From Candidatus Methanophagales archaeon (GTDB lineage Archaea; Halobacteriota; Syntropharchaeia; Alkanophagales; Methanospirareceae), in contig JAPWVK010000159.1 in NCBI GenBank assembly GCA_029241965.1, forward strand, positions 1 to 34,086: DNA of 34,086 nucleotides, in the 5' to 3' direction. The notes beneath the pieces are model-generated. The model had not been told where the DNA came from, did no database searches, and saw only the letters and a program-made list of their open reading frames with translations. The translations under genes were made by a program, and so were the position numbers. The number at the start of each line of letters is the position of its first letter. Position 1 is the stretch's first letter. This document shows, one piece after another, positions 1,227-33,994 of this stretch.

Positions 1227-1574
1227 CTATATTTTTTCCCATTCTTTACGAATTTTGTAGGAATCGTTTTCTCCGAATATTATCGTTCTTCTGAGCTTTT
1301 TCAAAGCTTCTACTCTTTTTTGAGTCTTCGGACGAACCCATAAAAGACGATATATAAGATATATAAGATATGAAAAAATGAAGATTGAGATGATAAGTAG
1401 AGAAAACCGTAAACCAGAAATGATGGAAGTGATGTTATTAGCTGGTAAATTAGTTGTTCCTGCTGCAAATATAAGGGCTGTAATTGAAAGTGCAACTGCT
1501 ACAAGCAGAGTGATAGTTGGGGTAGTACTATCTTGGCTATTTTGTATTCTCTGTCGAGTAGAGCTCATAGCCAT
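1227..1574 (-). CDS. Small hypothetical membrane protein (2 predicted TM)
   Basis: ORF with two hydrophobic helices; overlaps the upstream gene by 10 nt, which suggests co-transcription. Confidence 0.3.
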
Positions 1575-2221
1575 CTCCTCCCGGAAGCTACTATGAGCCC
1601 CCTCACAGAACCGGACTTGAGGTTTTCCCTCATCCAGCTCTTCGGAAGAACCTCCCTACCCTTTACCGGATAGGTTATGAGTCCAGTTTTGTTGCCACCC
1701 TTTACCAGCCTCTTTGTGCGGTGGATGTGTCCCTGACCCAACGGTTCAACCGCCAGCCCCTTCCCTCCACGGGCATTACCCCGCTTCTCCGGTACTATGA
1801 ACTGGTCCGACTCCCAGAGTGTCGTCTGCACTATCTTACCGTTTATATGTTTGATAGGACATACTCCGGTAAGGAGAACACCCCGGGTCTCCCGAGTTAA
1901 CATAATATCCATTTGATACCGTGCCACGGTCTCAGACCCCGTCGGGCTCGCATCGCATCGCCACGTCCTATTAAGACTATCGGCGATGAGAGTACTGCCT
2001 TCCGCCAACCAAACAGCGTCGGCCACCGACACAATAAGAATTTCGTGGCTGAATCCCTTCACTTGCGTTGCAGCCCAGTATCCCATTCCCCTAGCTTCAC
2101 CACAGCCTGTTACCAGGCTGGATGCAAGGTTCAGTTCTGAGGTGGCGGCTAACCTTTCCTCAGGTTGGATTTCCACCAACTGGATATTATGAACTTTGCT
2201 CGGCACTCCCCCCCCAAACAT
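1565..2221 (-). CDS. Hypothetical protein, weak metallophosphoesterase-like C-terminus (GQGHIHR)
   Basis: 218-aa ORF; a GHxH-like motif near the C-terminus, other phosphoesterase motifs not convincingly present; poly-C8 tract (2208-2215) inside its first codons. Confidence 0.3.
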
Positions 2222-6032: not shown

Positions 6033-6184
6033 GTATAGCAAATTTTTAAAACCACGAGATTCCACAAGATCAACACAAGAAATAGGGATTAATGTGGGAT
6101 AATGTGGCCTATGGTATACTAAAATCTGGTTACTGCCCTTCTATTCTCGTGGAAATCGGTAAAATCTTGTGGTTAACTAAACAA
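6033..6184 (+). repeat. Interspersed intergenic repeat, copy A (left arm tgtatagcaaat..aaaccacgagattccacaagat, right arm ttctcgtggaaatcggtaaaatcttgtggttaactaaacaa)
   Basis: Same bipartite element also at 12291-12449 (+), 13971-14120 (-) and 33838-33994 (+); the arms contain mutually inverted ccacgag/ctcgtgg motifs. Confidence 0.5.
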
Positions 6185-12290: not shown

Positions 12291-12449
12291 GTGTTTGTAA
12301 AGTCGGGGTAAAAAACCACGAGATTTCACGAGAACCCCACAAGATTTTTGGATTAACCGGGGATGAAAGAGCCATTAAAGTACTTAAGCCGGAACCATTT
12401 TATCGTTTTTCTTGTGTGAATCTGCGTAATCTTGTGGTTAACTAAACAA
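12291..12449 (+). repeat. Interspersed intergenic repeat, copy B
   Basis: aaaaaccacgagatttcacgag ... cttgtggttaactaaacaa, same arms as copy A. Confidence 0.45.
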
Positions 12450-13970: not shown

Positions 13971-14120
13971 TTGTTTGACTAACCACAGATTACACAGATT
14001 TCCACGAGAAAATATAACGCTGTAAGGTATAAGATGCAAATCTAACCGATATCCTGCGTCCCGTACAATCTTCTTGTGCTAATCTCGTGGAATCTCGTGG
14101 TTTTAAAAATTCGCTATACA
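13971..14120 (-). repeat. Interspersed intergenic repeat, copy C (inverted orientation)
   Basis: Reverse complement matches copy A arms: ttctcgtggaaatctgtgtaatctgtggttagtcaaaca and tggaatctcgtggttttaaaaattcgctataca. Confidence 0.5.
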
Positions 14121-14125
14121 AATAC

Positions 14126-14172
14126 GTTTTTCTTTTAGCACATGTTTTCTTTTTTCTAAAAAGAAAAAGTGT
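14126..14172 (+). promoter_or_regulatory. Second copy of the palindromic TATA-like promoter motif
   Basis: tttcttttagcacatgttttcttttttctaaaaagaaaaagtg, near-identical to 7640-7683; lies directly upstream of the tandem structured-RNA region. Confidence 0.3.
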
Positions 14173-14239
14173 TGTGTTAAGTATTGTGTAATATCGTGGT
14201 CTGTCGACATGGAAGCTGCATCGCAGATTGCCCGTGCGG

Positions 14240-14533
14240 CTACCCCCGCCATTCGGGGTAATCCTACTGCGGAACACGTCGGGGGTAACGCTTGCGTGGT
14301 AAGCTCGCAGGACAACGTGGAAAATCAGAAAGTCCGATTTGGATCAACTGCCAGGATAAGAACGCTATTTGTTGACAAGAAGTTGCATCACCGATTGCCT
14401 AACCGGGTACCCCCGCCATTCGGGGTAATCCTACCGCGGAATGCGCGGATGGGAACGTCCACGTAGTAAGCCCGCGGAACAACGTGTAAAATCTGAAAGT
14501 CCGGTTTAGATCAACTGCAAGGATAAAAACACC
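14240..14533 (+). ncRNA. Tandem pair of homologous structured RNA elements (copy 1 ~14240-14405, copy 2 ~14406-14533), candidate cis-regulatory leader or small RNAs; family not identified
   Basis: Two ~130-165-nt copies share CCCC-GCCATTC-GGGG hairpin, a long-range helix with compensatory changes (CTGCG...CGCAG vs CCGCG...CGCGG), inner hairpin ACGC..GCGT vs ACGT..ACGT, conserved GAAAGTCCG loop region. Confidence 0.35.
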
Positions 14534-14923
14534 ATGAAGAGCGTAAAGCGAACCATTGTAAGAGTCGTCACGTATAATAAGCGAAAACGGACTGTTACGC
14601 TTGGACCAAAAGGTACGGAATTTGGCCATAATGGCTACCATAACGTTATGGTGGGTGGACATACGATTCCCGGCTTACAGGCGGCTTCTAAGGTGTTCAT
14701 AAATATCTGTGATGTAGAACGTGGTAAGCCCTATATGCTCCCGGAATCACAGGGTAGGGACCTCGTAAGGGTAAACGATGGCTTAGAGGGTAGAGGATTT
14801 GGTAAAAAGCGAATGGCATCTTGTAATGAAAGGTATAGGGGTTCGAAATTTGCCCTAACCCGAAAGGGTGCTGACTTACCAAATTGGTGTTCCATTGTAT
14901 GCTTGGAGGCAGAATGTAAGTAG
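14534..14923 (+). CDS. Hypothetical small basic protein (129 aa)
   Basis: ATG immediately after the second RNA copy; K/R-rich N-terminus, several Cys; no recognisable family. Confidence 0.35.
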   Translation: MKSVKRTIVRVVTYNKRKRTVTLGPKGTEFGHNGYHNVMVGGHTIPGLQAASKVFINICDVERGKPYMLPESQGRDLVRVNDGLEGRGFGKKRMASCNERYRGSKFALTRKGADLPNWCSIVCLEAECK

Positions 14924-15171
14924 TTCAATTACGCCTGTAATAGGCGAGCGACTTACAGACATTCAACCAAAACGCCGATATCATATGGAAAGAGGTTGAA
15001 GAACTTGTTAACAGGTTGCAAACCTGAATTACAAAAGCAGTTAACTGCTGCCCGATACAGAAAGGGTTATGAAATGCTTGAGCGGTATGAAGGGAAACTT
15101 TCACGTACCGTTCTGAGACGAGGAGGGGCGAGCAATCGCCCCATCCTTAGTCTGCTAGCTAAACAAATAAT

Positions 15172-16419
15172 TCAAAATGACTTCGTCAATTCCTCTACTA
15201 TCGCGTTGGCTATCAACTTCTTCGCGCCTTTCACATGCTTTATATCCACCGCACCTGCGCTTAAAATGAACACATCGTTATCTTCGGTTCCTATTCCACC
15301 CTTGCCAACGTCATTTGCAACTACCATCGCAAGGTTGTAGCTCTCCATCTTTTCCCGCGCTCTTTCTATCAGTTCATCATCAGAAACGTGCGTCTCCGCT
15401 TTGAATCCCACGATAACGAGTTTCGGGAATTCTTTACGTACTTCTTCTATCAGTTTCGGAGTGGGGACAAGAGTCAGATGGAGCTCGCCTCCTGATGGGA
15501 TTTTCGTATCTACCGAATTACCGGTAAAATCGGCGATCGCCGCTGAGGATATAAGCGCATCGTATTCTTTACCGTTCTTTTTACCCTCACGTAGTTCATT
15601 AACGCAAGCATCAATCATTTCTTGCGCTGTTTCCACCCGGATTTCTTTTATCCCTGTTAAATCCAGTGCTCTGCTGTGTACGAGTGTGACTTCGGCTCCC
15701 TGCGTGTATGCCGCCCTTGCGAGTTCTACACCTGTTCGTCCAGAGCTTCGGTTTGTTAAAATCCTTATCGGATCTATCGGCTCAATGGTCGCACCTCCTG
15801 TAATGATGATGCGTCTTCCCAGAAGATTCTTTGGCGAGAGTACACGCTCAATGGTAAGAACCATATTCTCGATTGATACGATCTTAGCAAGCCCTTCCTC
15901 TATTTTCGGCCCTATGACGGTTACACCGAGCCTTTTCAGCTTATTGAGGTTCTCTATCAGAACAGGACTCTTATATATAGTCTCGTGCATCGCCGGCACC
16001 ACAATAATTGGTATTTCAGAGCCGAAGGCAGTGGTTGCAAATGCAGTCACCGTGGTGTCCGACACGCCCGTAGCGATTTTATTTAACGTGTTTGCAGTGC
16101 ATGGTGCGACGATAAACAGGTCTGCGAAACCTTCCATACCCAAGAACTCTACATGCTCTATATTACCCATTAGTTTCGTTATCACTTCGTGACCCGTGGC
16201 GTAATGAAGCGTATAAGGGTGAATTATTTCGGTTGCCGCTTCACTCATCACGCCGTACACATCTGCACCATGCCGTACTAGTTCGCGTGCGAGTTCAACA
16301 GTTCTTACTGCTGCGATAGAGCCCGTAACACCCAGAACTATCTTCTTATCTAACAGAGACTGGCTTTTTGTTCCTTTGATGCGCAGGGTCGGATGCGGCC
16401 CCCTATCTCTTTTTGTCAT
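15172..16419 (-). CDS. coaBC: Bifunctional phosphopantothenoylcysteine decarboxylase / phosphopantothenate-cysteine ligase CoaBC
   Basis: N-terminal flavoprotein motif KKIVLGVTGSIAAVRTVELARELVRHGADVY and C-terminal CoaB motif RRIIITGGATIEPIDPIRILTNRSSGRTG; the six-frame ORF extends to 16479 but overlaps tRNA-Ala, so the start is placed at the internal Met (MTKRDRG...). Confidence 0.8.
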   Translation of the reverse strand: MTKRDRGPHPTLRIKGTKSQSLLDKKIVLGVTGSIAAVRTVELARELVRHGADVYGVMSEAATEIIHPYTLHYATGHEVITKLMGNIEHVEFLGMEGFADLFIVAPCTANTLNKIATGVSDTTVTAFATTAFGSEIPIIVVPAMHETIYKSPVLIENLNKLKRLGVTVIGPKIEEGLAKIVSIENMVLTIERVLSPKNLLGRRIIITGGATIEPIDPIRILTNRSSGRTGVELARAAYTQGAEVTLVHSRALDLTGIKEIRVETAQEMIDACVNELREGKKNGKEYDALISSAAIADFTGNSVDTKIPSGGELHLTLVPTPKLIEEVRKEFPKLVIVGFKAETHVSDDELIERAREKMESYNLAMVVANDVGKGGIGTEDNDVFILSAGAVDIKHVKGAKKLIANAIVEELTKSF

Positions 16420-16979: not shown

Positions 16980-17783
16980 CTATTTCCTCTTTACGTAGTA
17001 ATAAAAACCTACAATGCCAATTATAACCAAAGCGACAATTAGAATGATTAAGAGTTTGTACGTTTGTTTTGGCGACACAGGCGCAGGAGTAATTGTTACC
17101 GTGGGTGCAGGTGTTGCAGTTATTGTTTGTTTAGTCAATGCAGGAGTTACTGCGGGCGCATCAGAACCAGGATAGGAATGTTGGTCATTCGGATCGGTTC
17201 CTACAAACGTCTCATCTATGTCGCGATAACCGTCTCCATCTGCGTCCGTTTCTCCGCCCGCGCCACTCCGATTATATGGTGGTGTGGTAGTCACTACGTA
17301 TAACAGCCCATTTCTTGCGGCTGACGTTCCGAAATTGCCCTCGGGATCCGACAATTCGATATCACTCAGCGTCATATGGCTATAATTTATCGAATCAGAT
17401 GTTCTTTCCACGCTAAAGTTGAGCAAAGCAATTGAACCACTTGACCCATTTGATATGGCATATGCAAAAGGACCAGCGAGTGAAACACGAGTCCCCCCCT
17501 CAAAATCGTTGTTAAACCCTAAAACATTCCATTCCAACGTTAGTTCCCCTCTTAAAACGTTTGTAACGTTTATGACTCGCTTGTCATAAGCTATATTAAA
17601 TACAATAGCTTGAACCGGCCCGTTTTTTACTGTTGTTATATTTACTGGCACGATTACATGTGTTCCCTGCACTCCACTTGCATCTACCAGACCAAAACCA
17701 TCGGCACTTGGCTGTGCAGATACGGGTATCAGTGCTATTACCAAACACATGCCTATTCCATACGCTAACGTTTTAATATTCAT
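16980..17783 (-). CDS. Secreted cohesin-domain protein with Ca-binding Asp-rich segment and C-terminal TM anchor plus basic tail
   Basis: Signal peptide (start placed at MNIKTLAYG); cohesin-like pattern GTHVIVPVNITTVKNGPVQAIVFNIAYDKRVINVTNVLRGEL; DADGDGYRDIDETFVGTDPND; Pro/Thr linker; C-terminal LLIILIVALVIIGIVGFYYYVKRK. Confidence 0.55.
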   Translation of the reverse strand: MNIKTLAYGIGMCLVIALIPVSAQPSADGFGLVDASGVQGTHVIVPVNITTVKNGPVQAIVFNIAYDKRVINVTNVLRGELTLEWNVLGFNNDFEGGTRVSLAGPFAYAISNGSSGSIALLNFSVERTSDSINYSHMTLSDIELSDPEGNFGTSAARNGLLYVVTTTPPYNRSGAGGETDADGDGYRDIDETFVGTDPNDQHSYPGSDAPAVTPALTKQTITATPAPTVTITPAPVSPKQTYKLLIILIVALVIIGIVGFYYYVKRK

Positions 17784-18200
17784 TTCTTTCTCCGTTATAC
17801 AACCCTTATTGCAGGAACCCAATCATCGTATATCTCCCCGTTTGCGTCCGTGAATTTGGTGCAGGTAATTTCTCCGCCTGTTACGTTTATTCTATGTTCG
17901 TGTACTATCTGCGGATATGATCCTGTTTTTATTGTATAGTTGTACTTTTTACCTTCTCTTAATTTAAATGTATTCGTGAAATTTATGTTTTGATACTCGT
18001 CATTGTAACCGTTCCATGAGGCACTTTCATTCACGCCATGCCCCTGAATCCAAACGTATTCGGTATGCCCGCCTGTGCCTTCACAGGAATACGTATAGAG
18101 TGTATGCACGGTAATATCAGCATTCGGCGTAATCGTTCCTATGTGTATGCCGGAGATGGAGGGATAGGTGCCTGGGCCCGTATGGAATATTGTTTTTTCG
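17762..18200. repeat. ~440-bp direct repeat (copy 1) ~93% identical to 18762-19198
   Basis: Near-identical nucleotide stretches offset by exactly 998 bp; they cover the shared C-terminal domain plus ~35 bp beyond the stop, including the MNIKTLAYG start of the next gene. Confidence 0.8.
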
Positions 18201-18661
18201 AGCACATTTACTGAGATCGGAATCCTAAGGCCAGAATATTCATTTCCACCAATATTTGTATCCTGAAATTGAATATACATCCTTCTCTCATCGGAATGCC
18301 CTACTTCGCATGCGCTTCCCGACGTTGCGCCATATAATCCTGGTTCGGCATTCTTTGGTATCTTGATTGTAACAGTAAAAGTTTTTATTTCTCCACTCTT
18401 GATCGTGTACTTCTCTGGTTCGACTCTGATCCATGATGTAATGTTAATCAATTCTTCATCATCTTTCTCTACATGCTCGTAATATACGGACCAATATCCA
18501 GTTCTCTCAGTAGGTATTGTCCCCACTAGTGTGATATTTTGATTTAATGTATCACCCGGACAGCCTTCCCAGTTGCACATAGAGCGGCAATCAACCGATG
18601 TCGCGGATGCCGCCGGAACGCACAACAGTGCAATCAACATTATCAGTATTATTTTCTTCAT
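17795..18661 (-). CDS. Secreted two-domain surface protein (N-terminal domain paralogous to 30464-31066 and 31063-31722 genes; C-terminal ~125-aa domain shared with 18800-19729 gene)
   Basis: Signal peptide MKKIILIMLIALLCVPAASA; N-domain ITSWIRVEPEKYTIKSGEIKTFTVTIKIPKNAEPGLYGATSG; C-domain GTYPSISGIHIGTITPNADITVHTLYTYSCEGTGGHTEYVWIQGHG... Confidence 0.55.
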   Translation of the reverse strand: MKKIILIMLIALLCVPAASATSVDCRSMCNWEGCPGDTLNQNITLVGTIPTERTGYWSVYYEHVEKDDEELINITSWIRVEPEKYTIKSGEIKTFTVTIKIPKNAEPGLYGATSGSACEVGHSDERRMYIQFQDTNIGGNEYSGLRIPISVNVLEKTIFHTGPGTYPSISGIHIGTITPNADITVHTLYTYSCEGTGGHTEYVWIQGHGVNESASWNGYNDEYQNINFTNTFKLREGKKYNYTIKTGSYPQIVHEHRINVTGGEITCTKFTDANGEIYDDWVPAIRVV

Positions 18662-18761
18662 AATTACCTGTACTATTTTCGTATTAAAAGTACTTTATTA
18701 ATTTCATGCTCTTTGGTGTTTCCTTTGGCGCTATTACCAAACACAGCGCACTAATGCTTAA

Positions 18762-19198
18762 TCCATACGCTAACGTTTTAATATTCATTTCTTTCTCCGT
18801 TATACAAACCTTATTGCAGGAACCCAATCATCGTATATCTCCCCGTTTGCGTCCGTGAATTTGGTGCAGGTGATTTCTCCGCCTGTTACGTTTTTGCTAT
18901 GTTCGTGTACTATCTGCGGATATGATCCTGTTTTTATTGTATAGTTGTACTTTTTACCTTCTACTAATATAAATGTATTCTCGAATTCTATGTTTTGATA
19001 ATCGTCATTGTAACCGTCCCATGAGGCACTTTCATTCACGCCATGCCCCTGAATCCAGACGTATTTGGTATGCCCGCCTGTGCCTTCACAGGAATACGTA
19101 TAGAGTGTATGCACGGTAATATCAGCATTCGGCGTAATCGTTCCAATGTGTATGCCGGAGATAGAGGGATAGGAGCCCTGACCCGTATCGAATAAAGT
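18762..19198. repeat. ~440-bp direct repeat (copy 2)
   Basis: See copy 1; downstream of this copy (18690-18790, minus strand) lies an orphan 5' fragment MNIKTLAYGLSISALCLVIAPKETPKSMKLIKY of the cohesin gene. Confidence 0.8.
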
Positions 19199-19729
19199 TC
19201 CGGTAGTATAAAACGTCCCGTTCTTCACTGGTGCTGGTCCTTCGTTACCAGACGGATCCGACAATTGAATATCACTCAGGTTCATGTCAGTTTTATATGG
19301 TGCACCGCCTATGACGCGGAAGTTAAGAAGGACGACAGAACCACTTGAGCCATTCAGTATGGCATGAGCGGATGGTCCTGAGAGTAAAACACGGGTACCC
19401 CATGCAAAGTTGTTGTTAAAGCCTAAATTGCCCCAATTAGACGTTAGAGTACCTCTTGAAACGCCTGTAACGTTTATAACCGTCTTGTCATACGCTATGT
19501 TGAATACAATGCCTAAAATCGGACCGCTGCTTGTATTTGTAATGTTTACCGGCACGGTTACATAAGTCCCTATAAGCCCATTGGCATCGTCAACACCGAA
19601 ATTATCTGCGGTGGGCGCCGCCAGAGCCGTTAACTCAAATATAGCAAATACCGTTAACAACCCGAATATAGCTAAACCCCCTCTCAGTCCTATTAAGCCT
19701 CTTCGTTTCCTCGATGCGGTTTTTTTCAT
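18800..19729 (-). CDS. Secreted cohesin-domain protein with shared C-terminal domain
   Basis: Signal peptide; cohesin-like GTYVTVPVNITNTSSGPILGIVFNIAYDKTVINVTGVSRGTL; C-terminal domain near-identical to that of 17795-18661. Confidence 0.55.
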   Translation of the reverse strand: MKKTASRKRRGLIGLRGGLAIFGLLTVFAIFELTALAAPTADNFGVDDANGLIGTYVTVPVNITNTSSGPILGIVFNIAYDKTVINVTGVSRGTLTSNWGNLGFNNNFAWGTRVLLSGPSAHAILNGSSGSVVLLNFRVIGGAPYKTDMNLSDIQLSDPSGNEGPAPVKNGTFYTTGTLFDTGQGSYPSISGIHIGTITPNADITVHTLYTYSCEGTGGHTKYVWIQGHGVNESASWDGYNDDYQNIEFENTFILVEGKKYNYTIKTGSYPQIVHEHSKNVTGGEITCTKFTDANGEIYDDWVPAIRFV

Positions 19730-19760
19730 TGTAGTATAATATTTCTTTGGTAAAGCTTTT

Positions 19761-20810
19761 TCATTTCTTCTTTCGCAACCAAAGGTATCCCATGAGTACG
19801 AGCAATCCTCCAGAAACGAGGGTCATTGTACTCCATTCAGGAATCGGGTAGCCCGGGTCCGTTCCGGGTGATGATATGTAGCTCCATGCCATACCGGTCT
19901 GCACCTTGTAGTCATAGCTCGTATTGTTGTTTGTCAGATTGAGTGCTAAAAACTTTCCTGCCGGCACAGTAAACGCTGCTGCGGTTGTTTCAAACGAGAA
20001 GACGCTTTTGCTGCCGTTTCCAGTCAGTGTTGCCTGTGGTCCTCCGGCAGTAAAATTGGTGCCACCCGAAGAATTACCTATCTCAACCTTGAATGTATCT
20101 CCGTCTGCCGGTGCCGCGACAAACGTTATCTGCCCTGTCCAATTGTTGCCATTCACTGGAAAGGTAACGTCTGTCTGCGCCGCTGAATCCGCAACCCAGA
20201 TATGAGAGTCGCTGTGGTTTATGGTAATATTACCCTGTGGTTTGGTCTGGTTTCCCTTGTACATCTCGCTGTCGTTGTGCAGATACCAGGACTGTGTGCC
20301 GCTGACAGTAAAAGTCCCATTCTTTGGGGGGGCAGATCCTATTCTATAACCGCTTACATCTGAGAAGCTTATATTTACATACGTAAAGTTCATAGTACTT
20401 GTTTCACCCCGAGTTCCAATAACGCTGAAGTTGAGTAGAGCGACAGAACCACTTGACCCATTTGATATGTTATATTCGGCAGCTCCCGTCATGTAAACAC
20501 GAGTACCCCATGTAACGCTGTTGTTATAGTCGAAATTATTCCAACTAGACGTTAAATTACCTTTTAAAACGTCTGTAACGTTTATGACATTTTTGTCATA
20601 CACAATATTAAATATTATTCCCAAAAGTGGACCGTTGCTAACATTTGTAATGTTCACCGGCACAATCACCGAAGTCCCATGTGCGCCACTCGCATCGTCC
20701 ACACCAAAACTTTCCGCAGTAGGATCTTGTGCTGAAACAGGCATCGCCATTACAAGTACTGACAACAGCACGATTGCACTTAGTCCATGCACCCATCTAT
20801 TTCTATTCAT
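19761..20810 (-). CDS. Secreted cohesin-domain glycoprotein with PEF-CTERM-like (PEW + TM + RKKK) C-terminal anchor
   Basis: Signal peptide; cohesin-like GTSVIVPVNITNVSNGPLLGIIFNIVYDKNVINVTDVLKGNL; sequon-rich C-terminal half; ends PEWSTMTLVSGGLLVLMGYLWLRKKK. Confidence 0.55.
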   Translation of the reverse strand: MNRNRWVHGLSAIVLLSVLVMAMPVSAQDPTAESFGVDDASGAHGTSVIVPVNITNVSNGPLLGIIFNIVYDKNVINVTDVLKGNLTSSWNNFDYNNSVTWGTRVYMTGAAEYNISNGSSGSVALLNFSVIGTRGETSTMNFTYVNISFSDVSGYRIGSAPPKNGTFTVSGTQSWYLHNDSEMYKGNQTKPQGNITINHSDSHIWVADSAAQTDVTFPVNGNNWTGQITFVAAPADGDTFKVEIGNSSGGTNFTAGGPQATLTGNGSKSVFSFETTAAAFTVPAGKFLALNLTNNNTSYDYKVQTGMAWSYISSPGTDPGYPIPEWSTMTLVSGGLLVLMGYLWLRKKK

Positions 20811-22343: not shown

Positions 22344-23801
22344 TTATACCGCTTCTCCCAACACCGACACCGTGGATGTGTCCGTTCCCGACCCTTTCAG
22401 CTCGTATGCCAGATACAAGTCATTGTAAGTTCCTACGGATACTGTTACCCCTGTATCTTTATAGCTACCCCATGACTTTAGAGTAGTCCAGCTACTGACC
22501 GCCCAGGGGCTCGTGTCATCTACGGTTACATTACAGAAATGAACCGGATAACTCTCTATGGCTGAAGACGTATTTGCATCCCTGACGAAGCATGCTAGCG
22601 TTATTGTCTCCCCTACGGTGTAACTATTTTCGTCAGGAGGCAAATCCCATGTTACGTTTGACCAGCCCCACTTAACCACCGACTCATTCTGATAAGAGCT
22701 GTTAGAATTAGATGCATTGTCATAAGTTGTTTCGGTAATATTGTATTCTCCGTCCTCAGGGACGGACAAAGTAACGACAAAAGTTCCATTTGTGGCGTTT
22801 GTAGTTGAATTGACTATCTTTCCTTCGTAAGGCACTTTGTCTATTTTCTTGATGATTACAGGTTTATTATTCTCATCAAGGGCGACCAAAATTCTTCCAT
22901 CCGAAATCTTCTGGTAGATGTTTTCTATCCTTATAAGAGAGAATTTATTTATATACCCGTTGCCAATATTATCAGTGGTGGTAGAAATGTCGGAAGTCGA
23001 AATCAGGTTTAAAGTTCCCACGGGATTGAAGGAAGAGATGGAAGAGCTTCCGGGAATGGAAGAGATGGTTGTAGAATTCATAAGGCTGAAGATTTTCGAG
23101 CATGAATTGAAGAAGTCTAAGGAATTACAGAGGTTCATATTTGAGTCGTTGTCCGCAAAGAGCAAATTGACGCTGGCAGATGCTATTGAACTTGGGGCGA
23201 AAATGAAGGAAGGAATGCTTGAAGAGCTCAAAGAGAAGGGATTACTGTAGATGAGACTGGTTGTGGATGCAAATGAGCTGTTCGCGGGGATAATCGCTAA
23301 AGGTAAGGAATTACAGAGTTGGACGCTGGACATATTATTTTCAGATGAAGTTGAATTGTTCGCACCTTTCATATTGCTTGCCGAATTGGAGAAGAACAGG
23401 GATGAGATAAGGGAAAAGTCAGGATTTTCCCTGAGGGATTTTGATGTGTTCGTTGGCATCCTCAAGTTAAGAGTCGGATTTATCCCTCTGGAGCGGTTTT
23501 TAGCTAAGATTCCGGAGGCTAAGGAGTTGGCACCGCATTTAAAAGATGTCGAATATTTCGCATAAGCATTGAAACTTGATTGCCCAATCTGGACGCAAGA
23601 AAAAGCGTTCAAAAAACAATCTGTAGTCAAGGTGTTCTCAACTCTTGATTTGTTTTCGTTTTTATCCGAGACAGGCCCATAGCCCGCTAAAGAGGTTGAA
23701 GGATATTTTGGATTGACTGAAGTGTAAACCTTATGCTCTGGCGAAAACGTCAGAACTGTTTCGTATCTACTCAAATCCATAAATCTTATTTTTTGCTTCA
23801 T
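22344..23801 (-). CDS. Truncated paralog of the giant surface protein (last ~190 aa) preceded by a third, N-terminally truncated intein-like element
   Basis: C-terminus ...SWTTLKSWGSYKDTGVTVSVGTYNDLYLAYELKGSGTDTSTVSVLGEAV nearly identical to the giant protein C-terminus; N-terminal part carries FSPEHKVY (Hint block B) and ILVALDENNKPVIIKKIDKVPYEGKI (Hint C-terminal half) around a low-complexity S/L-rich segment that is antisense to 22987-23682. Confidence 0.45.
   Translation of the reverse strand: MKQKIRFMDLSRYETVLTFSPEHKVYTSVNPKYPSTSLAGYGPVSDKNENKSRVENTLTTDCFLNAFSCVQIGQSSFNAYAKYSTSFKCGANSLASGILAKNRSRGINPTLNLRMPTNTSKSLRENPDFSLISSLFFSNSASNMKGANNSTSSENNMSSVQLCNSLPLAIIPANSSFASTTSLIYSNPFSLSSSSIPSFIFAPSSIASASVNLLFADNDSNMNLCNSLDFFNSCSKIFSLMNSTTISSIPGSSSISSFNPVGTLNLISTSDISTTTDNIGNGYINKFSLIRIENIYQKISDGRILVALDENNKPVIIKKIDKVPYEGKIVNSTTNATNGTFVVTLSVPEDGEYNITETTYDNASNSNSSYQNESVVKWGWSNVTWDLPPDENSYTVGETITLACFVRDANTSSAIESYPVHFCNVTVDDTSPWAVSSWTTLKSWGSYKDTGVTVSVGTYNDLYLAYELKGSGTDTSTVSVLGEAV
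22987..23250 (+). CDS. Small antitoxin-like protein (partner of the PIN gene), antisense within intein-like copy 3
   Basis: MSEVEIRFKVPTGLKEEMEELPG..., homologous to 26826-27050 and 27864-28094 products (shared E-[IV]-V-V/F-K/E-V-P N-terminus); stop abuts the PIN start (TAGATG); track ORF starts earlier at 22918. Confidence 0.45.
   Translation: MSEVEIRFKVPTGLKEEMEELPGMEEMVVEFIRLKIFEHELKKSKELQRFIFESLSAKSKLTLADAIELGAKMKEGMLEELKEKGLL
23251..23682 (+). pseudogene. PIN-domain toxin gene interrupted by an in-frame TAA
   Basis: MRLVVDANELFAGI... (PIN N-terminal Asp) ...HLKDVEYFA-stop-ALKLDCPIWTQEKAFKK...; intact paralogs read HLKDMPYVALSLKFDCKIL and DVDFFALALKLNCPLW at the same position. Confidence 0.45.
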
Positions 23802-26800
23802 ACCGCTTCTCCCAACACCGACACCGTGGATGTGCCCGTTCCCGACCCTTTCAGCTCGTATGCCAGATACAAGTCTTTGTGTGTTCCTTTGGATACTCTT
23901 ACCCCTGTATCTTTATAGCTACCCCAAGATTTTAGACTAATCCAGCTACCAACAGCCCCGGGGCTCGTGTCATTTGCGGTTACGTTAAACTTCTCGTCAT
24001 TTATTATTGTTGACCAACCGTTCACCTCTTCTACCTTCAGCCAGATCTTGTATTCAGTCGAAGAAGAAGGATTGTAAATTGTAACTACTGGTGAGTTACT
24101 GGTCACATTTTGCGGGTTGCCGCTGCCGTCCGCATTATTGTGTGGGTCAACTACTGTGGCACCAGTTGCACCCGAGAAGTTAATGGAACTGATACTCTGC
24201 GAAGCAGTTTGATTTCTGATTTCAAGTGTCGTTGCGTATGACAACTCTATGGATGTATTGGCTTCATCATCCGCAGTGACGTTATAAAACAGCGTGGCAT
24301 TATCCGTGATATTACATTTTGGATAGTACCATCCTACTGCCACGCCTGATGTATCCCAATCCAGGACGGCATATCCGCTGCTATTCGTGTAATTCAGACC
24401 AAGGTATGTCACGGTAGAGTCAGTCTTGTTATAAAAACGAACCGGATAATTCTCTATGCCCGATGAGGTATTGACATCGCGGACAAGGCATGTTAGCGTT
24501 ATTATCGCACCTGATTCGTAACTACTTCCGCCGGAAGGCGAGCCCCACGTTACGTTTGACCAACCCATCTTAAACACCGATTGATTTTGATACGAGATAT
24601 TATAATTCGATGCGTTATCATACATCTCTACCGACACGTTGTATTTCCCCTTAGCAGCACTTGAATTTAGATAAAAACTCGCATTTACATACGAATTTGG
24701 TGTGTAAGCAGTATCCGACGACGAATTGATGGTCGCAGTAGCGTTGTATATCGTGACCGTGTAGTTCTTTGGATTATCCTCCGTGTACGAGAAGTTGACA
24801 TAAAACTGCTCGCCGCCCTTCTTGTAGATTGGAACGGAAGTTGTAGGCACGTCTATCGTGATAGTCGGTGATTGCGAATCTATGGTGAAGTTCGTACCGA
24901 GCCACGTCTCTGACGTCTCGCCCTCATCGTCTGTTGCCACGCAATGCAACGTATAGAGTCCGGGACTATAATTGGATGCGTTGAACGCTATATCGGCAAT
25001 CCCGCCAGCGGCATCCGCTTCGGTAAAAGTATTGTTTACTATCGAAATAAATGTCTGGTTCGGATAGCACAAAGTCAGATTATGAACCACTGTGCCGCCG
25101 TCCGGATCGGTCGCAACCCCAACACCAATATCGAATATACCGTCATAGCTACCATTCATATCATAGTCCTTTACACCACTGATATTGAAATACCTAATGT
25201 GCGGGACGGTAGGTGGATAGTGCACCAATCTGATGTCGTTTGTAAGCAGCGTTGAATTGCTCCAACTACCCGATGCGTTTGCTGCATACAGCTTCATCTG
25301 GTGCTGCATACCACTTTTAGAGTAGTCGAAAAATAACTTCGGCGTCCATGCCGCCTGCAAAAATGACGAGCCATCATTGGTACTCGTCCATGCAACGTTT
25401 GTTTGCGCAAACGATATGTTCATACCGCTCGTACCATCTACATACGCCAGGCGGTACTCATTGCTTGTAGCTGTCGGAGATCGGAAGTATATGTATCCAT
25501 GCGGTGTTGTGTTTACGTCAGAACCTATAACCCTGCTATTGTTCACACCAATCGTAAAGGTCACGAACGAACTGTTGTACGGCTCGTACGTGTAATCATC
25601 TACTGTTGTGCCAGTGTACGAAGTCAAGTAAGTATAATATGGACTTTCGAGTGGCTTACCGCCAGTGATGTTATACGAGTCGTTTAGGTAGTAAATATCA
25701 AGATTGTTCGATGCTCCCAGATCGGTTGCCTCGAAAGCGATATGTATTTTATAGTCCGAAGAACCTTTAATTGCTTCAGTGTCCCAGAACTTGACCAGAG
25801 CAGCACGGTATCCTGTTGAGCCCTGTTTATAGATGTCATAATATTTGCTAATCTCTTTCTGCATCCGCGTCCTATCTAAGTAATACATGTTCTCAAATAC
25901 AGTATTCTCAACCGTGCCATTCCAGTGCACATACGAGTGCGTGTCATTTACCTTTTGGATAGTAAGCCGGGAAGTGTTTTCATCCGCGCCCGCCCATTTC
26001 CAGACGTTGCCCTCTGTGATGGTGGCATTATCCTCAAAGTTCAAGCGCTGTATTGTAGCATTCCGGTTATCGGCACGTAGAATCTGCTCGTTGCATAAAG
26101 CCCATACCGCAGATTTGTTGTTGCTCGGAACACGGAGTGACCAGTTATAACTATCGAGCACCGAGTCCCAGAGCGTCCAGACGAGCGATACGCTGCTGTT
26201 ATTGAGTGTATGTGTAGCATCCGTAGTAACCAACCAGGTTACGTTGAATGCACCGGTCGAGTTCTCGTAAATCGTAGCCGGCTCCTGCGAGATGAGTTCA
26301 AATGTCGGACAGCCCGCCTGATTGTATGCATAATCGACGTCACCACCAAATCGAAACTCTAATGCGTGTTTGCCCGAAGTTAAAACCTTACTTGTTTCGT
26401 AGCTGGTTTCGTTACAGGAATAATTGTGTATGAATAAGGAATTGTTTCGCCATTGATAATCCAGTGTGCGATTGCCGCATTTCAGGGCAAGCAATTGCAG
26501 GTCATAGTTTGAGTTGCCGCACCAGACAGGCGTTGAGTTTTTACGCCGTATTAAAAGTATGCGGTTCGGGACGGTAACAGAGTAAATCTTGCCGTTATAA
26601 GGGACTTCTTCGATTTTTTTTACTGCTACGGGATTCTGTTCGGAATCGAGGAATACTAACTGTTTGTCGGGTAGCTCGTGGAGTTCCGAGATTTTTAGCA
26701 ATGAATAGGTATTTAAACCGTTCGGATTTATAGTATTAGTGATGACGGTTTCTTTTTCATTCACGGTCACAGGCATCGAGAAGTTATTTAAATACAGCAA

Positions 26801-29800
26801 GTTAGTTTTATTATTGGTGAGAGAAATGGCCGAAATAGTTGTTAAGGTTCCAGAGGATATTGGTATAGAGCTTGGTAGGGTTTCAGAAGAGAATTGGCAA
26901 TTGTTATTCTCAAGATTCCTGAGAAGAGAGCTGGAAGAAATAAGAGGGATCGAAGCGATAGTATCTAAATCAAAACTAACAGAGGAGCAAGCCAAAGAAT
27001 TAGCAGATGAAGTAAGTTTAGCGATAGCTAAAAGACTTCTTGAGAAGTGATTCGAGATGTTATTGGTAGTTGACGCTAATGTCGTATTCTCAGCACTAAT
27101 AAGAAGAGGCAAGCCATTAAGGGTATTTGAGTTGAACAAGCTTCTCATGAAATTTGAATTTATTGCACCAGAGTTCCTGTTCTTTGAGGTGGGTAAAAGA
27201 ATGGATAAAATACTCAAGCTCACAGATTTATCTAAAGAAGAGTTCATAACGGTTTTTTCATTCATTAAGAATGAACTCGAGCTAATTCCTCTTGAAACAT
27301 TTGAAGATAAAGTTGATGAAGCCAAGGAGAGATCACCACACTTGAAGGATATGCCATATGTTGCTTTATCCCTCAAATTCGATTGTAAGATTCTGTCTGG
27401 AGATAAAGGAATAAAGGAATGCTTGCCTGGTAGAGTCATCATACCATCTAAAGCCTTAAGAATTCTATTTGGGAGGACTGCACCATAAACCTTATGCTCA
27501 GGCGAAACCAGCAGTTGACTGCCATCTTCCAGAGTAAGCTCGAACATCGCATCCGAATAGTCGTATTCCAGATATTTAATCGGTTTCTGATTGCAAAAAA
27601 GTTTTGTGTGTTCTTTTGTAATTTGTGGTTTCCTTGTGGTTTCGTTATGCCGTTTCACCAGCACGATGTCGTTCGGGACGTCAACGTCATAAATCTTGCC
27701 GGTATAAGGGACTTCTTCGATTTTTTTTACTGCTACGGGATTCAGCTCGGAGTCAAGGAATACTAACTGTTTGTCTGATAGCTTGTCATAGAGTTCCGAT
27801 ATTTTTAGCAATGAATAAGTATTTAAATACAGCAAGCCAGTCTTATAATTAGGGGCGATAGAAATGTCAGAGTTAGTTGTTGAGGTTCCAGGATTGCTTA
27901 GAGGAGAGGTTGGTAAGCTAGAGCGAGAGATAGAGGAGCTAATATCGTGGGAGGAGAAGCGTAAATTACTCTCTCTGTTCATGGATGAGGTTATGAAAGA
28001 TGCTAAACAGTTGAGCGAAGACGAACTGGTTACACTTGGAAGAGAGATTAAGAAAGGCAGGTTTGAAAAGCTCAAGCAAAGGGGGTTTGTATGAGTGCGG
28101 TTAGTTGCTGACACAACCGAACTCTTCTCGTTCTTCAACGCTCGGTCAAAGGCAAGGGAGTTATCCATAATCCCTGAATTGGAATTACATTCCCCCTCCT
28201 TTTCTTTATATGAACTCAAAGAACATAAATCCAAGATTCTTACGAGTTTCTCGTTGACCGAGACACAGTTTCTATTGATAATGAAGTTGCTTAAGACCGT
28301 TGTAAAAGTTGCTAAAGAGGAAGAATACTCGGATTTTCTATCGGAGGCTAAGGAAATATCTCCAGACCCTAACGATGTAGATTTCTTTGCGTTGGCTCTG
28401 AAACTGAACTGTCCGCTTTGGTCAGAGGATAAGCTGCTAAAGGGGCAGTCTAAGGTTAAGGTACTCTCTACAAAAGATTTACTTGAACTTTTATCTCTCA
28501 TCAGCCCATAAACCTTATGCTCAGGCGAAACCAGCAGTTTACTGCCATCCGCCAGAGTAAGCTTGAACATCGCATCCGAATAGTCGTATTCCAGATATTT
28601 AATCGGTTTCTGCCATTCCTGCTCTCCCGTCTCCTGGTTTAAAGTCAGAACTTCTTCTTCTGGTTCTAAATCTTTGAACAGTTTCCAGCCTTCTTTTGTT
28701 AGAACCTCGGTTTCTTCGTCGTAACATTCGTACGGTTGGTTAGTCCAGGTCGTCCCGTTAACCGCGGTTATAGTCAAATCCGCAGTTCCTTCCGTCTCGA
28801 ACTTGACAGACCAGTTTCCACCTACTGCTGGATAAGACTGGACATTAATTATACTAATCGGATCAACAGCAACATACCAGGGTCTTGCCTCTGTAAATGT
28901 TTCTGAATCATAACTAATTTCCGCAGTACCTAAAGCGTACAAATAAGGCCACACAGGAGGAACTGCGTAAGAATAACTGACAGATGTTTTCTTGCCAATT
29001 AAATCTTTATTCCAGGTTATTGTCTTTGTATCGTCTTCCTGCATAACCGTAGCGGCATCCGTTGAATACACATCGAACTCAGCAGGCACAAATTCTTTTA
29101 ACGTTACGGATTCCGCATCAGTAAAGCATTCTACGTCAATCCTGACCTCAAACCTGTCCTGCAGTGTGGGGTCTATCTTGCTTTGTGTCGTTCTTATGAT
29201 GTCGAATTCATACTCCGGCTGAACCCGGAAATACGTATTGAAGAATACTTCAACGTTGTCAATTAAACCCGTGACTGAGATCGAGTGATTACCCTCTATT
29301 TCCGTTGGGTAATCCAGGTTATAAATGCCAGATTCGCTACTTGCGGTAATCGTGCCATCAGCGGTGGAATAAATCGTTTCCTCGTTATCGGGATTGTTTA
29401 CGGTTAAATAAAGATCGGCATTGCTGACTGAGTGCCCTGCTTTATCCAGGACAACGATAACGAATTCCACGGTTTCACCGGGTTTGTAGATGCTTTTTTT
29501 GGTGTTTACGGAAACAAGGCCCCACGGGAATTCGGATTCTAAAACGTAAACGTGCTCGTCCTTCACTAACTCCACACTTAATGTATATACGCCCACTCGG
29601 AATGCTCGTTCCTTAGGCAATTTAATTGCGAATTTGCCTTCGCCTTTTTTCGCTATTTCGGGCGCGATGTCTGTTAGTGCACCCGAAGAATCATAAACAA
29701 AAGTCTCTATCGTTTCGTTTTCTGTCACCCAGCGTTTCAATGCTTTTTGGGGTGCGCCAATAGCAGCTTCCTCACTTACAGTGCTAAGCATTTCCCGCGA

Positions 29801-30460
29801 TGCGTTTTCGGTAACATTTTCATTAAAAGTTTTCTGCGAAGCGTTTTTGATAAAACTTTTATTAAAAGTTTTATATTCAAACGAAAAAGTCGGTTCCTCA
29901 TCCAGGGAATAAGACTCTTTGTTTGCAATTAGTTTTGGCGGTTCAATCACGGATTCCGTAACATTAATATTACGTGATTCACCTGTTGATTCGTTAATCG
30001 TATAATTCAAACCGATGACGGAGGTATTATCAGTTGCATTTTCCGGTGTTTGTATCGTAACGCCCGAGGCATTACCTGTTGTATTATCCGTTGTATTTTC
30101 CGGTGTTTGTAACGTAACGCCCGAGGCATTACCTGTTGTACTATTATTAGTTGCAGTTTCAGGTGTTTGTATCGTAATGCCCGTGGCATTATCAGTTGTG
30201 TTATCAGTTACATTATCAGGTGATAGTATCGGATTTATCGGTGCCGTTACGTCCGTAATATTTTCTGACGGGGTATCATTAAGGTTAGTTACGTATGATG
30301 TAATGTTTTCAGGCAGCGTTGTGTTCTCGTTTTGTGTTGCACCAAAAGCGATTAAAGGCACGATAAGCAAAGCTATGACAATTGTAATGCGTGCGCTCTT
30401 CCAGTTTGTTTTTGCTCTTAGCATCTTTTCGCAGGTCAAGCTTCCTTTTCTATCATACAT
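23798..30460 (-). CDS. Giant secreted cell-surface glycoprotein (2220 aa) containing two tandem intein-like insertions
   Basis: N-terminal signal/TM (ARITIVIALLIVPLIAFGA), three 22-aa tandem repeats, very high density of N-x-S/T sequons throughout, repeated beta-rich domains, C-terminal domain shared with 22344-23801 and 31856-32419 products; likely true start at MLRAKT (~30424). Confidence 0.55.
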   Translation of the reverse strand: MYDRKGSLTCEKMLRAKTNWKSARITIVIALLIVPLIAFGATQNENTTLPENITSYVTNLNDTPSENITDVTAPINPILSPDNVTDNTTDNATGITIQTPETATNNSTTGNASGVTLQTPENTTDNTTGNASGVTIQTPENATDNTSVIGLNYTINESTGESRNINVTESVIEPPKLIANKESYSLDEEPTFSFEYKTFNKSFIKNASQKTFNENVTENASREMLSTVSEEAAIGAPQKALKRWVTENETIETFVYDSSGALTDIAPEIAKKGEGKFAIKLPKERAFRVGVYTLSVELVKDEHVYVLESEFPWGLVSVNTKKSIYKPGETVEFVIVVLDKAGHSVSNADLYLTVNNPDNEETIYSTADGTITASSESGIYNLDYPTEIEGNHSISVTGLIDNVEVFFNTYFRVQPEYEFDIIRTTQSKIDPTLQDRFEVRIDVECFTDAESVTLKEFVPAEFDVYSTDAATVMQEDDTKTITWNKDLIGKKTSVSYSYAVPPVWPYLYALGTAEISYDSETFTEARPWYVAVDPISIINVQSYPAVGGNWSVKFETEGTADLTITAVNGTTWTNQPYECYDEETEVLTKEGWKLFKDLEPEEEVLTLNQETGEQEWQKPIKYLEYDYSDAMFKLTLADGSKLLVSPEHKVYGLMRDKSSSKSFVESTLTLDCPFSSLSSDQSGQFSFRANAKKSTSLGSGDISLASDRKSEYSSSLATFTTVLSNFIINRNCVSVNEKLVRILDLCSLSSYKEKEGECNSNSGIMDNSLAFDRALKNEKSSVVSATNRTHTNPLCLSFSNLPFLISLPSVTSSSSLNCLASFITSSMNRESNLRFSSHDISSSISRSSLPTSPLSNPGTSTTNSDISIAPNYKTGLLYLNTYSLLKISELYDKLSDKQLVFLDSELNPVAVKKIEEVPYTGKIYDVDVPNDIVLVKRHNETTRKPQITKEHTKLFCNQKPIKYLEYDYSDAMFELTLEDGSQLLVSPEHKVYGAVLPNRILKALDGMMTLPGKHSFIPLSPDRILQSNLRDKATYGISFKCGDLSLASSTLSSNVSRGISSSSFLMNEKTVMNSSLDKSVSLSILSILLPTSKNRNSGAINSNFMRSLFNSNTLNGLPLLISAENTTLASTTNNISNHFSRSLLAIAKLTSSANSLACSSVSFDLDTIASIPLISSSSLLRNLENNNCQFSSETLPSSIPISSGTLTTISAISLTNNKTNLLYLNNFSMPVTVNEKETVITNTINPNGLNTYSLLKISELHELPDKQLVFLDSEQNPVAVKKIEEVPYNGKIYSVTVPNRILLIRRKNSTPVWCGNSNYDLQLLALKCGNRTLDYQWRNNSLFIHNYSCNETSYETSKVLTSGKHALEFRFGGDVDYAYNQAGCPTFELISQEPATIYENSTGAFNVTWLVTTDATHTLNNSSVSLVWTLWDSVLDSYNWSLRVPSNNKSAVWALCNEQILRADNRNATIQRLNFEDNATITEGNVWKWAGADENTSRLTIQKVNDTHSYVHWNGTVENTVFENMYYLDRTRMQKEISKYYDIYKQGSTGYRAALVKFWDTEAIKGSSDYKIHIAFEATDLGASNNLDIYYLNDSYNITGGKPLESPYYTYLTSYTGTTVDDYTYEPYNSSFVTFTIGVNNSRVIGSDVNTTPHGYIYFRSPTATSNEYRLAYVDGTSGMNISFAQTNVAWTSTNDGSSFLQAAWTPKLFFDYSKSGMQHQMKLYAANASGSWSNSTLLTNDIRLVHYPPTVPHIRYFNISGVKDYDMNGSYDGIFDIGVGVATDPDGGTVVHNLTLCYPNQTFISIVNNTFTEADAAGGIADIAFNASNYSPGLYTLHCVATDDEGETSETWLGTNFTIDSQSPTITIDVPTTSVPIYKKGGEQFYVNFSYTEDNPKNYTVTIYNATATINSSSDTAYTPNSYVNASFYLNSSAAKGKYNVSVEMYDNASNYNISYQNQSVFKMGWSNVTWGSPSGGSSYESGAIITLTCLVRDVNTSSGIENYPVRFYNKTDSTVTYLGLNYTNSSGYAVLDWDTSGVAVGWYYPKCNITDNATLFYNVTADDEANTSIELSYATTLEIRNQTASQSISSINFSGATGATVVDPHNNADGSGNPQNVTSNSPVVTIYNPSSSTEYKIWLKVEEVNGWSTIINDEKFNVTANDTSPGAVGSWISLKSWGSYKDTGVRVSKGTHKDLYLAYELKGSGTGTSTVSVLGEAV
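26826..27050 (+). CDS. Small antitoxin-like protein, antisense within intein-like copy 2
   Basis: MAEIVVKVPEDIGIELGRVSEENWQLLFSRFLRRELEEIRGIEAIVSKSKLTEEQAKELADEVSLAIAKRLLEK; 6 nt upstream of the PIN start; track ORF starts earlier at 26739. Confidence 0.5.
   Translation: MAEIVVKVPEDIGIELGRVSEENWQLLFSRFLRRELEEIRGIEAIVSKSKLTEEQAKELADEVSLAIAKRLLEK
27057..27488 (+). CDS. PIN-domain (VapC-like, PIN_3-like) toxin
   Basis: MLLVVDANVVFSAL (Asp6), FEFIAPEFLFFEV (conserved Glu), HLKDMPYVALSLKFDCKILSGDKG (C-terminal Asp motifs); 143 aa. Confidence 0.6.
   Translation: MLLVVDANVVFSALIRRGKPLRVFELNKLLMKFEFIAPEFLFFEVGKRMDKILKLTDLSKEEFITVFSFIKNELELIPLETFEDKVDEAKERSPHLKDMPYVALSLKFDCKILSGDKGIKECLPGRVIIPSKALRILFGRTAP
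27864..28094 (+). CDS. Small antitoxin-like protein, antisense within intein-like copy 1
   Basis: MSELVVEVPGLLRGEVGKLEREIEELISWEEKRKLL...; stop TGA directly abuts the GTG start of the PIN gene. Confidence 0.5.
   Translation: MSELVVEVPGLLRGEVGKLEREIEELISWEEKRKLLSLFMDEVMKDAKQLSEDELVTLGREIKKGRFEKLKQRGFV
28095..28511 (+). CDS. PIN-domain (VapC-like) toxin, GTG start
   Basis: VRLVADTTELFSFF (Asp), ...EISPDPNDVDFFALALKLNCPLWSEDK; 138 aa. Confidence 0.55.
   Translation: MRLVADTTELFSFFNARSKARELSIIPELELHSPSFSLYELKEHKSKILTSFSLTETQFLLIMKLLKTVVKVAKEEEYSDFLSEAKEISPDPNDVDFFALALKLNCPLWSEDKLLKGQSKVKVLSTKDLLELLSLISP
30030..30240 (-). repeat. Three tandem ~66-bp coding repeats (22-aa sequon-rich units DNTTGNASGVTIQTPENATDNT) near the 5' end of the giant gene
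   Basis: Repeated nucleotide unit cgtaacgcccgaggcattacctgttgt... visible three times; sits within the 30424/30460-23798 giant-protein CDS. Confidence 0.6.
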
Positions 30461-33837: not shown

Positions 33838-33994
33838 TGTACAGCAAATCTACGAAACCACGAGATTCCACGAGATTAGCACAACACTTTTTCTTTTTCA
33901 GAAAAAGAAAACCTGTGCTAAAAGAAAACACGTTTGTTCTTTTGGTAAAGCTTTTCTTTCAAAGAAAAGGTTTCTCGTGGAAATCTATGGTTCG
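33838..33994 (+). repeat. Interspersed intergenic repeat, copy D, with the palindromic promoter motif embedded (33884-33936, minus orientation)
   Basis: tgtacagcaaatctacgaaaccacgagattccacgagatt ... tttctcgtggaaatctatggttcgctaaacaaaca; the embedded motif is the reverse complement of tttcttttagcacaggttttctttttctgaaaaagaaaaagtg and points toward the cooC-like gene. Confidence 0.45.

Follow-up and report, generated by a model that had tools for sequence, protein, structure and literature searches.

A tandem structured RNA repeat in a Candidatus Methanophagales contig as the probable remnant of nested group II introns

The two consecutive structured RNA units found in this archaeal contig match domain I of group II introns, and they are very probably the 5′ ends of two introns of the same family and of different sub-lineages, one nested in the other, of which the window now holds a collapsed remnant. 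"The window" denotes the whole stretch of DNA analysed (34,086 nt; contig JAPWVK010000159.1 of assembly GCA_029241965.1).

The whole window was scanned against Rfam at gathering thresholds (34 bits for RF02012 and 40 bits for RF00029). Relatives were collected by a pattern scan of one genome per species, which gave 64 loci (designated L with a number), nearly all of them from ANME-1/Methanophagales and ANME-2/Methanosarcinales assemblies. The direct repeat described in the earlier note was confirmed by Tandem Repeats Finder (14212-14530, period 167, 1.9 copies, 81% matches) and by a repeat search of the window, which returned two 157-nt direct copies starting at 14212 and 14379, 167 nt apart and 80% identical. 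By comparison of filled with empty insertion sites, the units were refined to 14201-14368 (168 nt) and 14369-14535 (167 nt), 79% identical to each other. The features of the region are as follows.

14126-14200, plus strand: 5′ flank ("5′ exon"), ending ...GTGTAATATCGTGGT, within a dispersed intergenic repeat
14201-14368, plus strand: copy 1 of the repeat, running from CTGTCGACATGG... to ...GAACGCTAT; initial 168 nt of the outer group II intron (5′ portion of domain I)
14369-14535, plus strand: copy 2 of the repeat; initial 167 nt of the inner intron, in its domain I
14369-15155, plus strand: complete ORF-less group II intron of 787 nt, in the domain I of the outer intron, from TTGTTGACAAG... 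to ...AGTCTGC
14534-14923, plus strand: spurious open frame of 129 codons, inside ribozyme domains I-III
14881-15045, plus strand: domain IV with a degenerate N-terminal RT remnant (...VNRLQT*ITKAVN), deletion breakpoint at 15045
15080-15113, plus strand: domain V, the catalytic hairpin (RF00029)
15116-15155, plus strand: domain VI and intron 3′ end, with the bulged A in CCUUAGUCU (RF00029 alignment)
15156-15170, plus strand: 3′ flank TAGCTAAACAAATAA, the 3′ half of the target-site repeat

The earlier note had been unable to place the element in an Rfam family; the scan assigned both units to a known one. Copy 2 matched RF02012 (group-II-D1D4-7) with 45.3 bits at 14410-14541 and copy 1 with 37.8 bits at 14244-14385, each over positions 1-151 of the 151-position model, and domains V/VI matched RF00029 (Intron_gpII) over its full length with 60 bits at 15078-15155, on the same strand as the RF02012 matches. 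No riboswitch family in Rfam was matched in the window at E ≤ 1. By blastn, 14369-15155 was collinear with single-copy introns in more than 20 loci, and most of the 64 loci contained one unit running straight into homologues of 14536-15044 and then into domains V/VI. Homology at the 3′ boundary ended after ...CTGC in an alignment of 8 copies. RNAalifold applied to 19 complete regions gave 159 consensus pairs for D1-D3 as a whole, the domains not being assigned helix by helix, and 41 of these pairs had compensatory changes. By the sequence-level criteria tested, 14369-15155 is a group II intron with a departing 5′ end.

The copy 2 match ends at an ATG, which suggested a reading of the Rfam "D1D4" model as a pre-ORF leader (D2-D4a). 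This was ruled out by the position of the RT genes of the relatives, about 500 nt further downstream, and by calibration on a second intron of the window, for which the only room is between the AglB stop and its own domain V; this showed that what an Rfam "D1D4" model covers can be the 5′ portion of domain I and not a pre-ORF leader. The second intron is likewise ORF-less and belongs to a different RNA family (1553-2204, minus strand; RF02005 with 112.5 bits and RF00029 with 49.9 bits), and has the AglB/STT3 stop (2293) on one side and a small Yip1-like ORF on the other. A putative 218-aa ORF (1565-2221) without a Pfam match lies almost wholly inside it and may be spurious. Elsewhere in the window, 23798-30460 and 16980-20810 on the minus strand contain, respectively, a 2220-aa ORF with MG2 and intein-splicing matches and three adjacent cohesin-domain ORFs.

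When the 5′ flanks of all loci were aligned, the homology shared by independent insertions started at [G/Y]UG[U]YGACAAGAAG, and each repeat unit therefore begins at an intron 5′ end. The filled/empty site comparison gave starts of CUGUCG and UUGUUG for the two window copies, off the GUGYG consensus. Over loci L001-L062, the ANME-1 intron copies, like those of the window at 14201 and 14369, begin YUGUYGAC (C or U first, with one extra U), and the ANME-2 relatives L005, L012, L015, L028, L043 and L054 keep the canonical GUGYG as GUGCG or GUGUG in register. Altered 5′ termini of group II introns are documented (PMC4424553), and the active TeI4h intron has a 5′ T (PMC2882425). Splicing competence is uncertain because both window 5′ ends depart from the consensus.

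Five loci (L010, L043, L045, L060 and L035) contained about 1.3 kb inserted at the point matching window position ~15044, and in L010, L045 and both L035 copies a gene with RVT_N, RVT_1 and GIIM domains occupied the position of the window's deletion. In the window, 14881-15045 encodes an RT remnant with 43% identity to the L010 RT and internal stops (tblastn), the counterpart of L010 1141-2412 is absent, and no other RT was found beyond this stub. The same deletion is common to L017, L018, L023, both L050 copies, L054 and L064. The inner element is an ORF-less derivative, the putative splicing or mobility of which would need an RT/maturase in trans. Against the maturase of PDB 6ME0, the RT of the relatives scored 488 bits over 419 residues; it stops near residue 424 of the 562 in the 6ME0 chain and is without that C-terminal region. 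PDB 6ME0 is presumably TeI4h, the RNP of a Thermosynechococcus elongatus IIB intron. The family is probably related to the chloroplast-like/IIB1 lineage, this RT similarity being the sole basis of the class assignment.

Shorter forms were also present among the relatives. In L006, L019, L038, L044 and L053, the first ~170-220 nt were fused directly to domains V/VI (for example L038 589-832 and L053 2460-2720), partly through ATGAAG microhomology. These mini-derivatives may be non-autonomous mini-elements or mere deletion debris.

For the analysis of covariation, 48 distinct unit copies from the 64 loci were aligned, and the helices described in the earlier note were tested together with a 7-bp hairpin, 34 pairs in total. 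Pairing was observed in 88.5% of cells, versus 28-46% when the partners were slid by 1-3 columns; 18 of the 34 pairs had changed on both sides, and none of 500 shuffles reached the observed values. The swap of CTGCG/CGCAG for CCGCG/CGCGG that had been pointed out between the two copies corresponds to pair 88/133, which covaries across the unit copies (UA:30, CG:15), and the swap in the inner hairpin (ACGC-GCGT versus ACGT-ACGT) corresponds to pair 95/122 (CG:26, UA:17). The earlier conclusion that paired substitutions maintain a structured non-coding RNA is thus upheld, and the paired differences between the two copies amount to ordinary covariation, which keeps the domain I helices in two diverged intron lineages. 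The description of GAAAGTCCG as a conserved single strand did not hold: its GAA is paired as part of the 7-bp helix, and most relatives read GAGAACCCAG at this position with compensating changes (pair 155/165, AU:25, GC:20). For the GAAA hairpin, the 7-bp register, backed by the majority lineage, was preferred to the Rfam register. A local 5′ hairpin, GCAUC...GAUUGC (helix 1), was rejected for want of compensatory changes; in the alignment fold, the segment GCAUC.C.GAU at the 5′ end instead has its partner far away at ~14700, and this long-range pairing covaries.

The flanks place the whole element in one canonical target site. An inverted repeat with 15-nt arms (14140-14154/14158-14172) lies within the segment 14126-14172, which the earlier note took for a promoter motif; the segment forms a hairpin and belongs to a dispersed intergenic repeat carrying the intron insertion site. 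The repeat (...GTGGAAATCTGTGTAATCTYGTGGT / TAACTAAACAA..., the slash marking the insertion point here and below) is present at 6051-6173, 12315-12438, 14087-14200 and 33857-33871, and its 15-nt 5′ half-site occurs 7 times in the window versus 1.4 expected. Empty sites of the window at 6173/6174 and 12438/12439 read ...GTGGT/TAACTAAACAA, and the filled site reads ...ATCGTGGT/(14201-15155)/TAGCTAAACAAAT, so that the 5′ and 3′ flanks together form the site, as in L017. The 3′ flank, which abuts the CoaBC stop codon (15172-15174, minus strand), is the same in L017 and L018, and the 5′ flank also precedes introns in L031, L035, L036, L052 and L058. Across the 64 loci the flanks are varied; the copies are mobile, with precise filled and empty target sites.

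A further empty site is that of L018, the orthologous MatE locus of ANME-1 GoMg2, which is 96% identical to the window at the DNA level (MatE, 95-97% at the protein level; 5′ flank, 97%). It is empty at the position of 14200/14201 (...GTGTAATCTCGTGGT/TTTTGAG), and where L018 has its own intron the window is empty (...CTTGTGGT/TAACTAAACAAATGC, 12438/12439). Synteny between the two stops exactly at the insertion point (14200). In L018 1-1716, the sequence downstream of the equivalent position has 99-aa and 342-aa ORFs in place of CoaBC; since gene order differs, the synteny breakpoint coincides with the intron/repeat. The MatE orthologue of L018 is also split by a 224-nt insertion at 2256-2480, corresponding to window position ~13555.

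The junction between the two units is a nested one. The uninterrupted domain I site of this family reads ...CTAT/GAAGAG, and copy 1 ends exactly there. The nested junction ...CTAT/Y-TGTTGACAAGAAGTTGCATCAC was found in the window, L027, L035, L036, L039 and L040, loci that span at least three different outer lineages or flanks. An intact intron within an intron is preserved in L035, where nt 1-168 of the outer intron are followed by a complete inner intron with an RT gene, and the outer intron resumes (GAAGAGTG...; GAAGAGTGTAATGC...) directly after the inner domain VI (...AATCTGC) and has an RT gene of its own. L035 is therefore a twintron in the sense of having outer parts on both sides; the window is not, as blastn found no match to outer intron nt 169 onward after 15155. 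Copy 2 was 94.6% identical to the L035 inner intron and shared with it the state of 39 of the 45 diagnostic sites, whereas copy 1 was 85% identical to the outer 5′ part of L035 and closest to the L017/L039/L008/L045 lineage, with up to 97% identity in 60-nt windows. These differing affinities suggest that one intron lineage was inserted into domain I of another. Further insertions were seen in two of the loci. At L035 11-129 on the minus strand, an intron of another family (RF01999, group-II-D1D4-2, 122.6 bits) forms a third level of nesting and begins where the RT ORF of the outer intron (76-1119) is cut short, and in L027 (78-420, minus strand) the outer intron has a further insertion of ~120 nt in the first hairpin region, between GGGTAATTCTAC and GGAGTAATCCTAC.

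The following course of events would account for the window. A first intron would have occupied the site in the dispersed intergenic repeat (...GTGGT/TARCTAAACAA), and a second would have retrohomed into the domain I site of the first (...CTAT/GAAGAG) to form an intron within an intron. The outer remainder, nt 169 onward, would then have been lost, most likely by homologous recombination between the inner and outer copies, and the product, outer(1-168) followed by inner(1-x)/outer-like(x-end), would appear as a tandem duplication of 168 nt. Recombinational collapse of a twintron is the simplest account of the missing outer remainder. Retrohoming is the probable mechanism of insertion; that base pairing directed it into the domain I site is likewise only inferred, because the EBS1/EBS2 search identified no exon-binding sequence complementary to that site and gave weak candidates only, within a palindromic hairpin. 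Judged by the positions that distinguish the inner from the outer intron of L035, the window was inner-like at 15 of 15 up to 14616 and then had 25 inner and 31 outer diagnostic sites (Fisher p = 5.6e-5), and a sliding-window comparison agreed. Past ~14616 the window is thus an inner/outer mosaic and not cleanly outer-like, and the recombination partner may have been a third copy.

Such a mosaic would also be expected of a collapsed consensus, and an assembly chimera, in which the assembler passed through the repeated intron from a MatE-side twintron into a CoaBC-side intron copy, is the alternative that survives best, unlikely as it is. In many related loci the contig breaks off within the intron, as a repeat that breaks assemblies would cause, and the 96%-identical L018 loses synteny with the window exactly at 14200, an observation that would fit a real rearrangement as well. 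Against a chimera stands the single canonical target site formed jointly by the two flanks, as in L017, and recombinational deletion among nested introns is documented in archaea (PMC4424553). The junction of copy 1 with copy 2 would be unaffected in either case, because it is independently present in five other assemblies.

A local tandem duplication of the first 168 nt of one intron by replication slippage or unequal crossing-over, followed by divergence in place, would equally give head-to-tail copies with a period of 167 and an entire element in one target site, but it is very improbable. Introns of other genomes are much closer to the two copies (95-100% and 97% in 60-nt windows) than the copies are to each other (79%), which rules out a recent local duplication, and the comparisons place copy 1 and copy 2 in different lineages. 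Moreover, the point of junction is precisely an intron 5′ end, five other loci share it with different outer lineages and flanks, and L035 retains the full outer remainder. Nested introns remain the preferred reading of the repeat.

The small basic ORF that had been reported at 14534 exists as an open frame of 129 codons (14534-14923), but it is not coding. It had no Pfam match, and about half of its homologues carried in-frame stops or frameshifts. In 24 pairwise alignments, mismatches at codon positions 1/2/3 numbered 450/516/441 and indels were of 1, 2 and 7 nt; the same test applied to the real RT gene as a positive control gave 316/219/789 (p = 6e-93). Many of the 159 predicted D1-D3 pairs, covarying helices among them, span the frame. 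By these comparisons of the copies, 14534-14923 is not a gene and is ribozyme sequence, and the earlier judgement that the overlapping ORFs of the region are spurious is borne out, no codon-periodic substitution being present in this frame. The frame is open in a number of diverged copies (L001, L015, L018, both L035 copies, L043 and L060), more often than expected at random, and because both copies of L035 keep it open a coding ORF was considered, in the form of a real intron-borne accessory protein overlapping the ribozyme. This is scarcely credible given the lack of a third-position excess, the non-triplet indels, the stops and frameshifts of the other copies, the want of a Pfam match, the covarying RNA helices that cross the region, and an amino-acid identity that does not exceed the nucleotide identity.

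The proposal of the earlier note, a tandem riboswitch-like or attenuator leader with its promoter at 14126-14172 and the ORF at 14534 under its control, can be dismissed as next to impossible. The RNA structure, backed by covariation, is real and an open 129-codon frame does follow, but both units are group II intron domain I matches above the RF02012 threshold and continue into domains II-VI. The ORF gives no sign of coding and is interrupted in about half of its homologues, the supposed promoter belongs to a dispersed repeat, in which it forms a hairpin, and the homologues sit in many unrelated contexts, next to RT genes, as a mobile element does. Neither outcome that the earlier note had named as a refutation was observed: the element is conserved well beyond this genome, and an overlapping ORF with coding conservation was not found.

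A further proposal is decidedly doubtful. The CTAACCGG sub-lineage may have specialised on the domain I site of sister introns as a renewable homing site, with its own ...CACCAT (versus ...CGCTAT) protecting it from self-invasion, and the first ~170 nt together with domains V/VI may constitute a minimal cis-acting module. The module is proposed because independent mini-derivatives of just those parts recur (L006, L019, L038, L044 and L053). If true, ANME archaea would harbour non-autonomous group II elements that make up a MITE-like class.

For ANME-1/ANME-2 genomics, these results document an abundant group II intron family, most copies of which are ORF-less, that targets a dispersed intergenic repeat and its own members, breaks assemblies and coincides with a synteny breakpoint. 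They also serve as a correction, in that two adjacent Rfam "D1D4" matches followed by an open frame can mimic a tandem cis-regulatory RNA with a small gene. The value is local, to ANME genome annotation and intron population biology, and the picture of how such introns proliferate and decay in archaea gains modestly from the recurrent insertion site in domain I and from the mini-derivatives. The RF02012 model covers no more than the first ~150 nt of domain I; its family description does not provide for a pair of adjacent matches, and the pair seen here reflects nesting.

Nesting of group II introns is known from several systems. A 2024 bioRxiv survey of archaeal group II introns makes no mention of ANME or of nesting. 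Plant mitochondria reportedly contain decayed "zombie" twintrons and a hypermobile group II intron that invades itself (PMC7049729); those introns are organellar, maturase-dependent and located within genes, whereas the introns described here are prokaryotic and intergenic. The TeI4/TeI3 family of T. elongatus (CL/IIB1; Mohr et al. 2010) includes ORF-less derivatives and twintrons (PMC2882425). It shares with the present family ORF-less derivatives having one deletion in common and N-terminal ORF remnants, twintrons, insertions into other mobile or repeated elements, and a non-canonical 5′ nucleotide (PMC2882425); its twintron site is in domain IV, where the RT ORF has its first two ATGs and the insertion falls between them (PMC2882425), and the site here is in domain I. 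The closest likeness is to the nested introns of Methanosarcina acetivorans (Dai & Zimmerly 2003, summarised in Zimmerly & Semper 2015, PMC4424553), where the host is likewise archaeal and ORF-less copies occur with RT-encoding ones. Archaeal group II introns home into other introns, and homologous recombination trims the resulting arrays (PMC4424553); in M. acetivorans, as here, intron-into-intron homing is site-specific and intergenic, without coding exons, and the arrays are trimmed by recombination (PMC4424553). Homing in M. acetivorans is reportedly into the RT ORFs of related introns, whereas the recurrent site described here lies ~168 nt into the intron, in domain I of the ribozyme. The present hosts are ANME archaea, a further difference, and the window has a collapsed remnant, not an intact nest. 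What is specific to the present case is the ANME hosts, the intergenic repeat as target, and the recurrent insertion site in domain I, in place of the RT ORF or domain IV.
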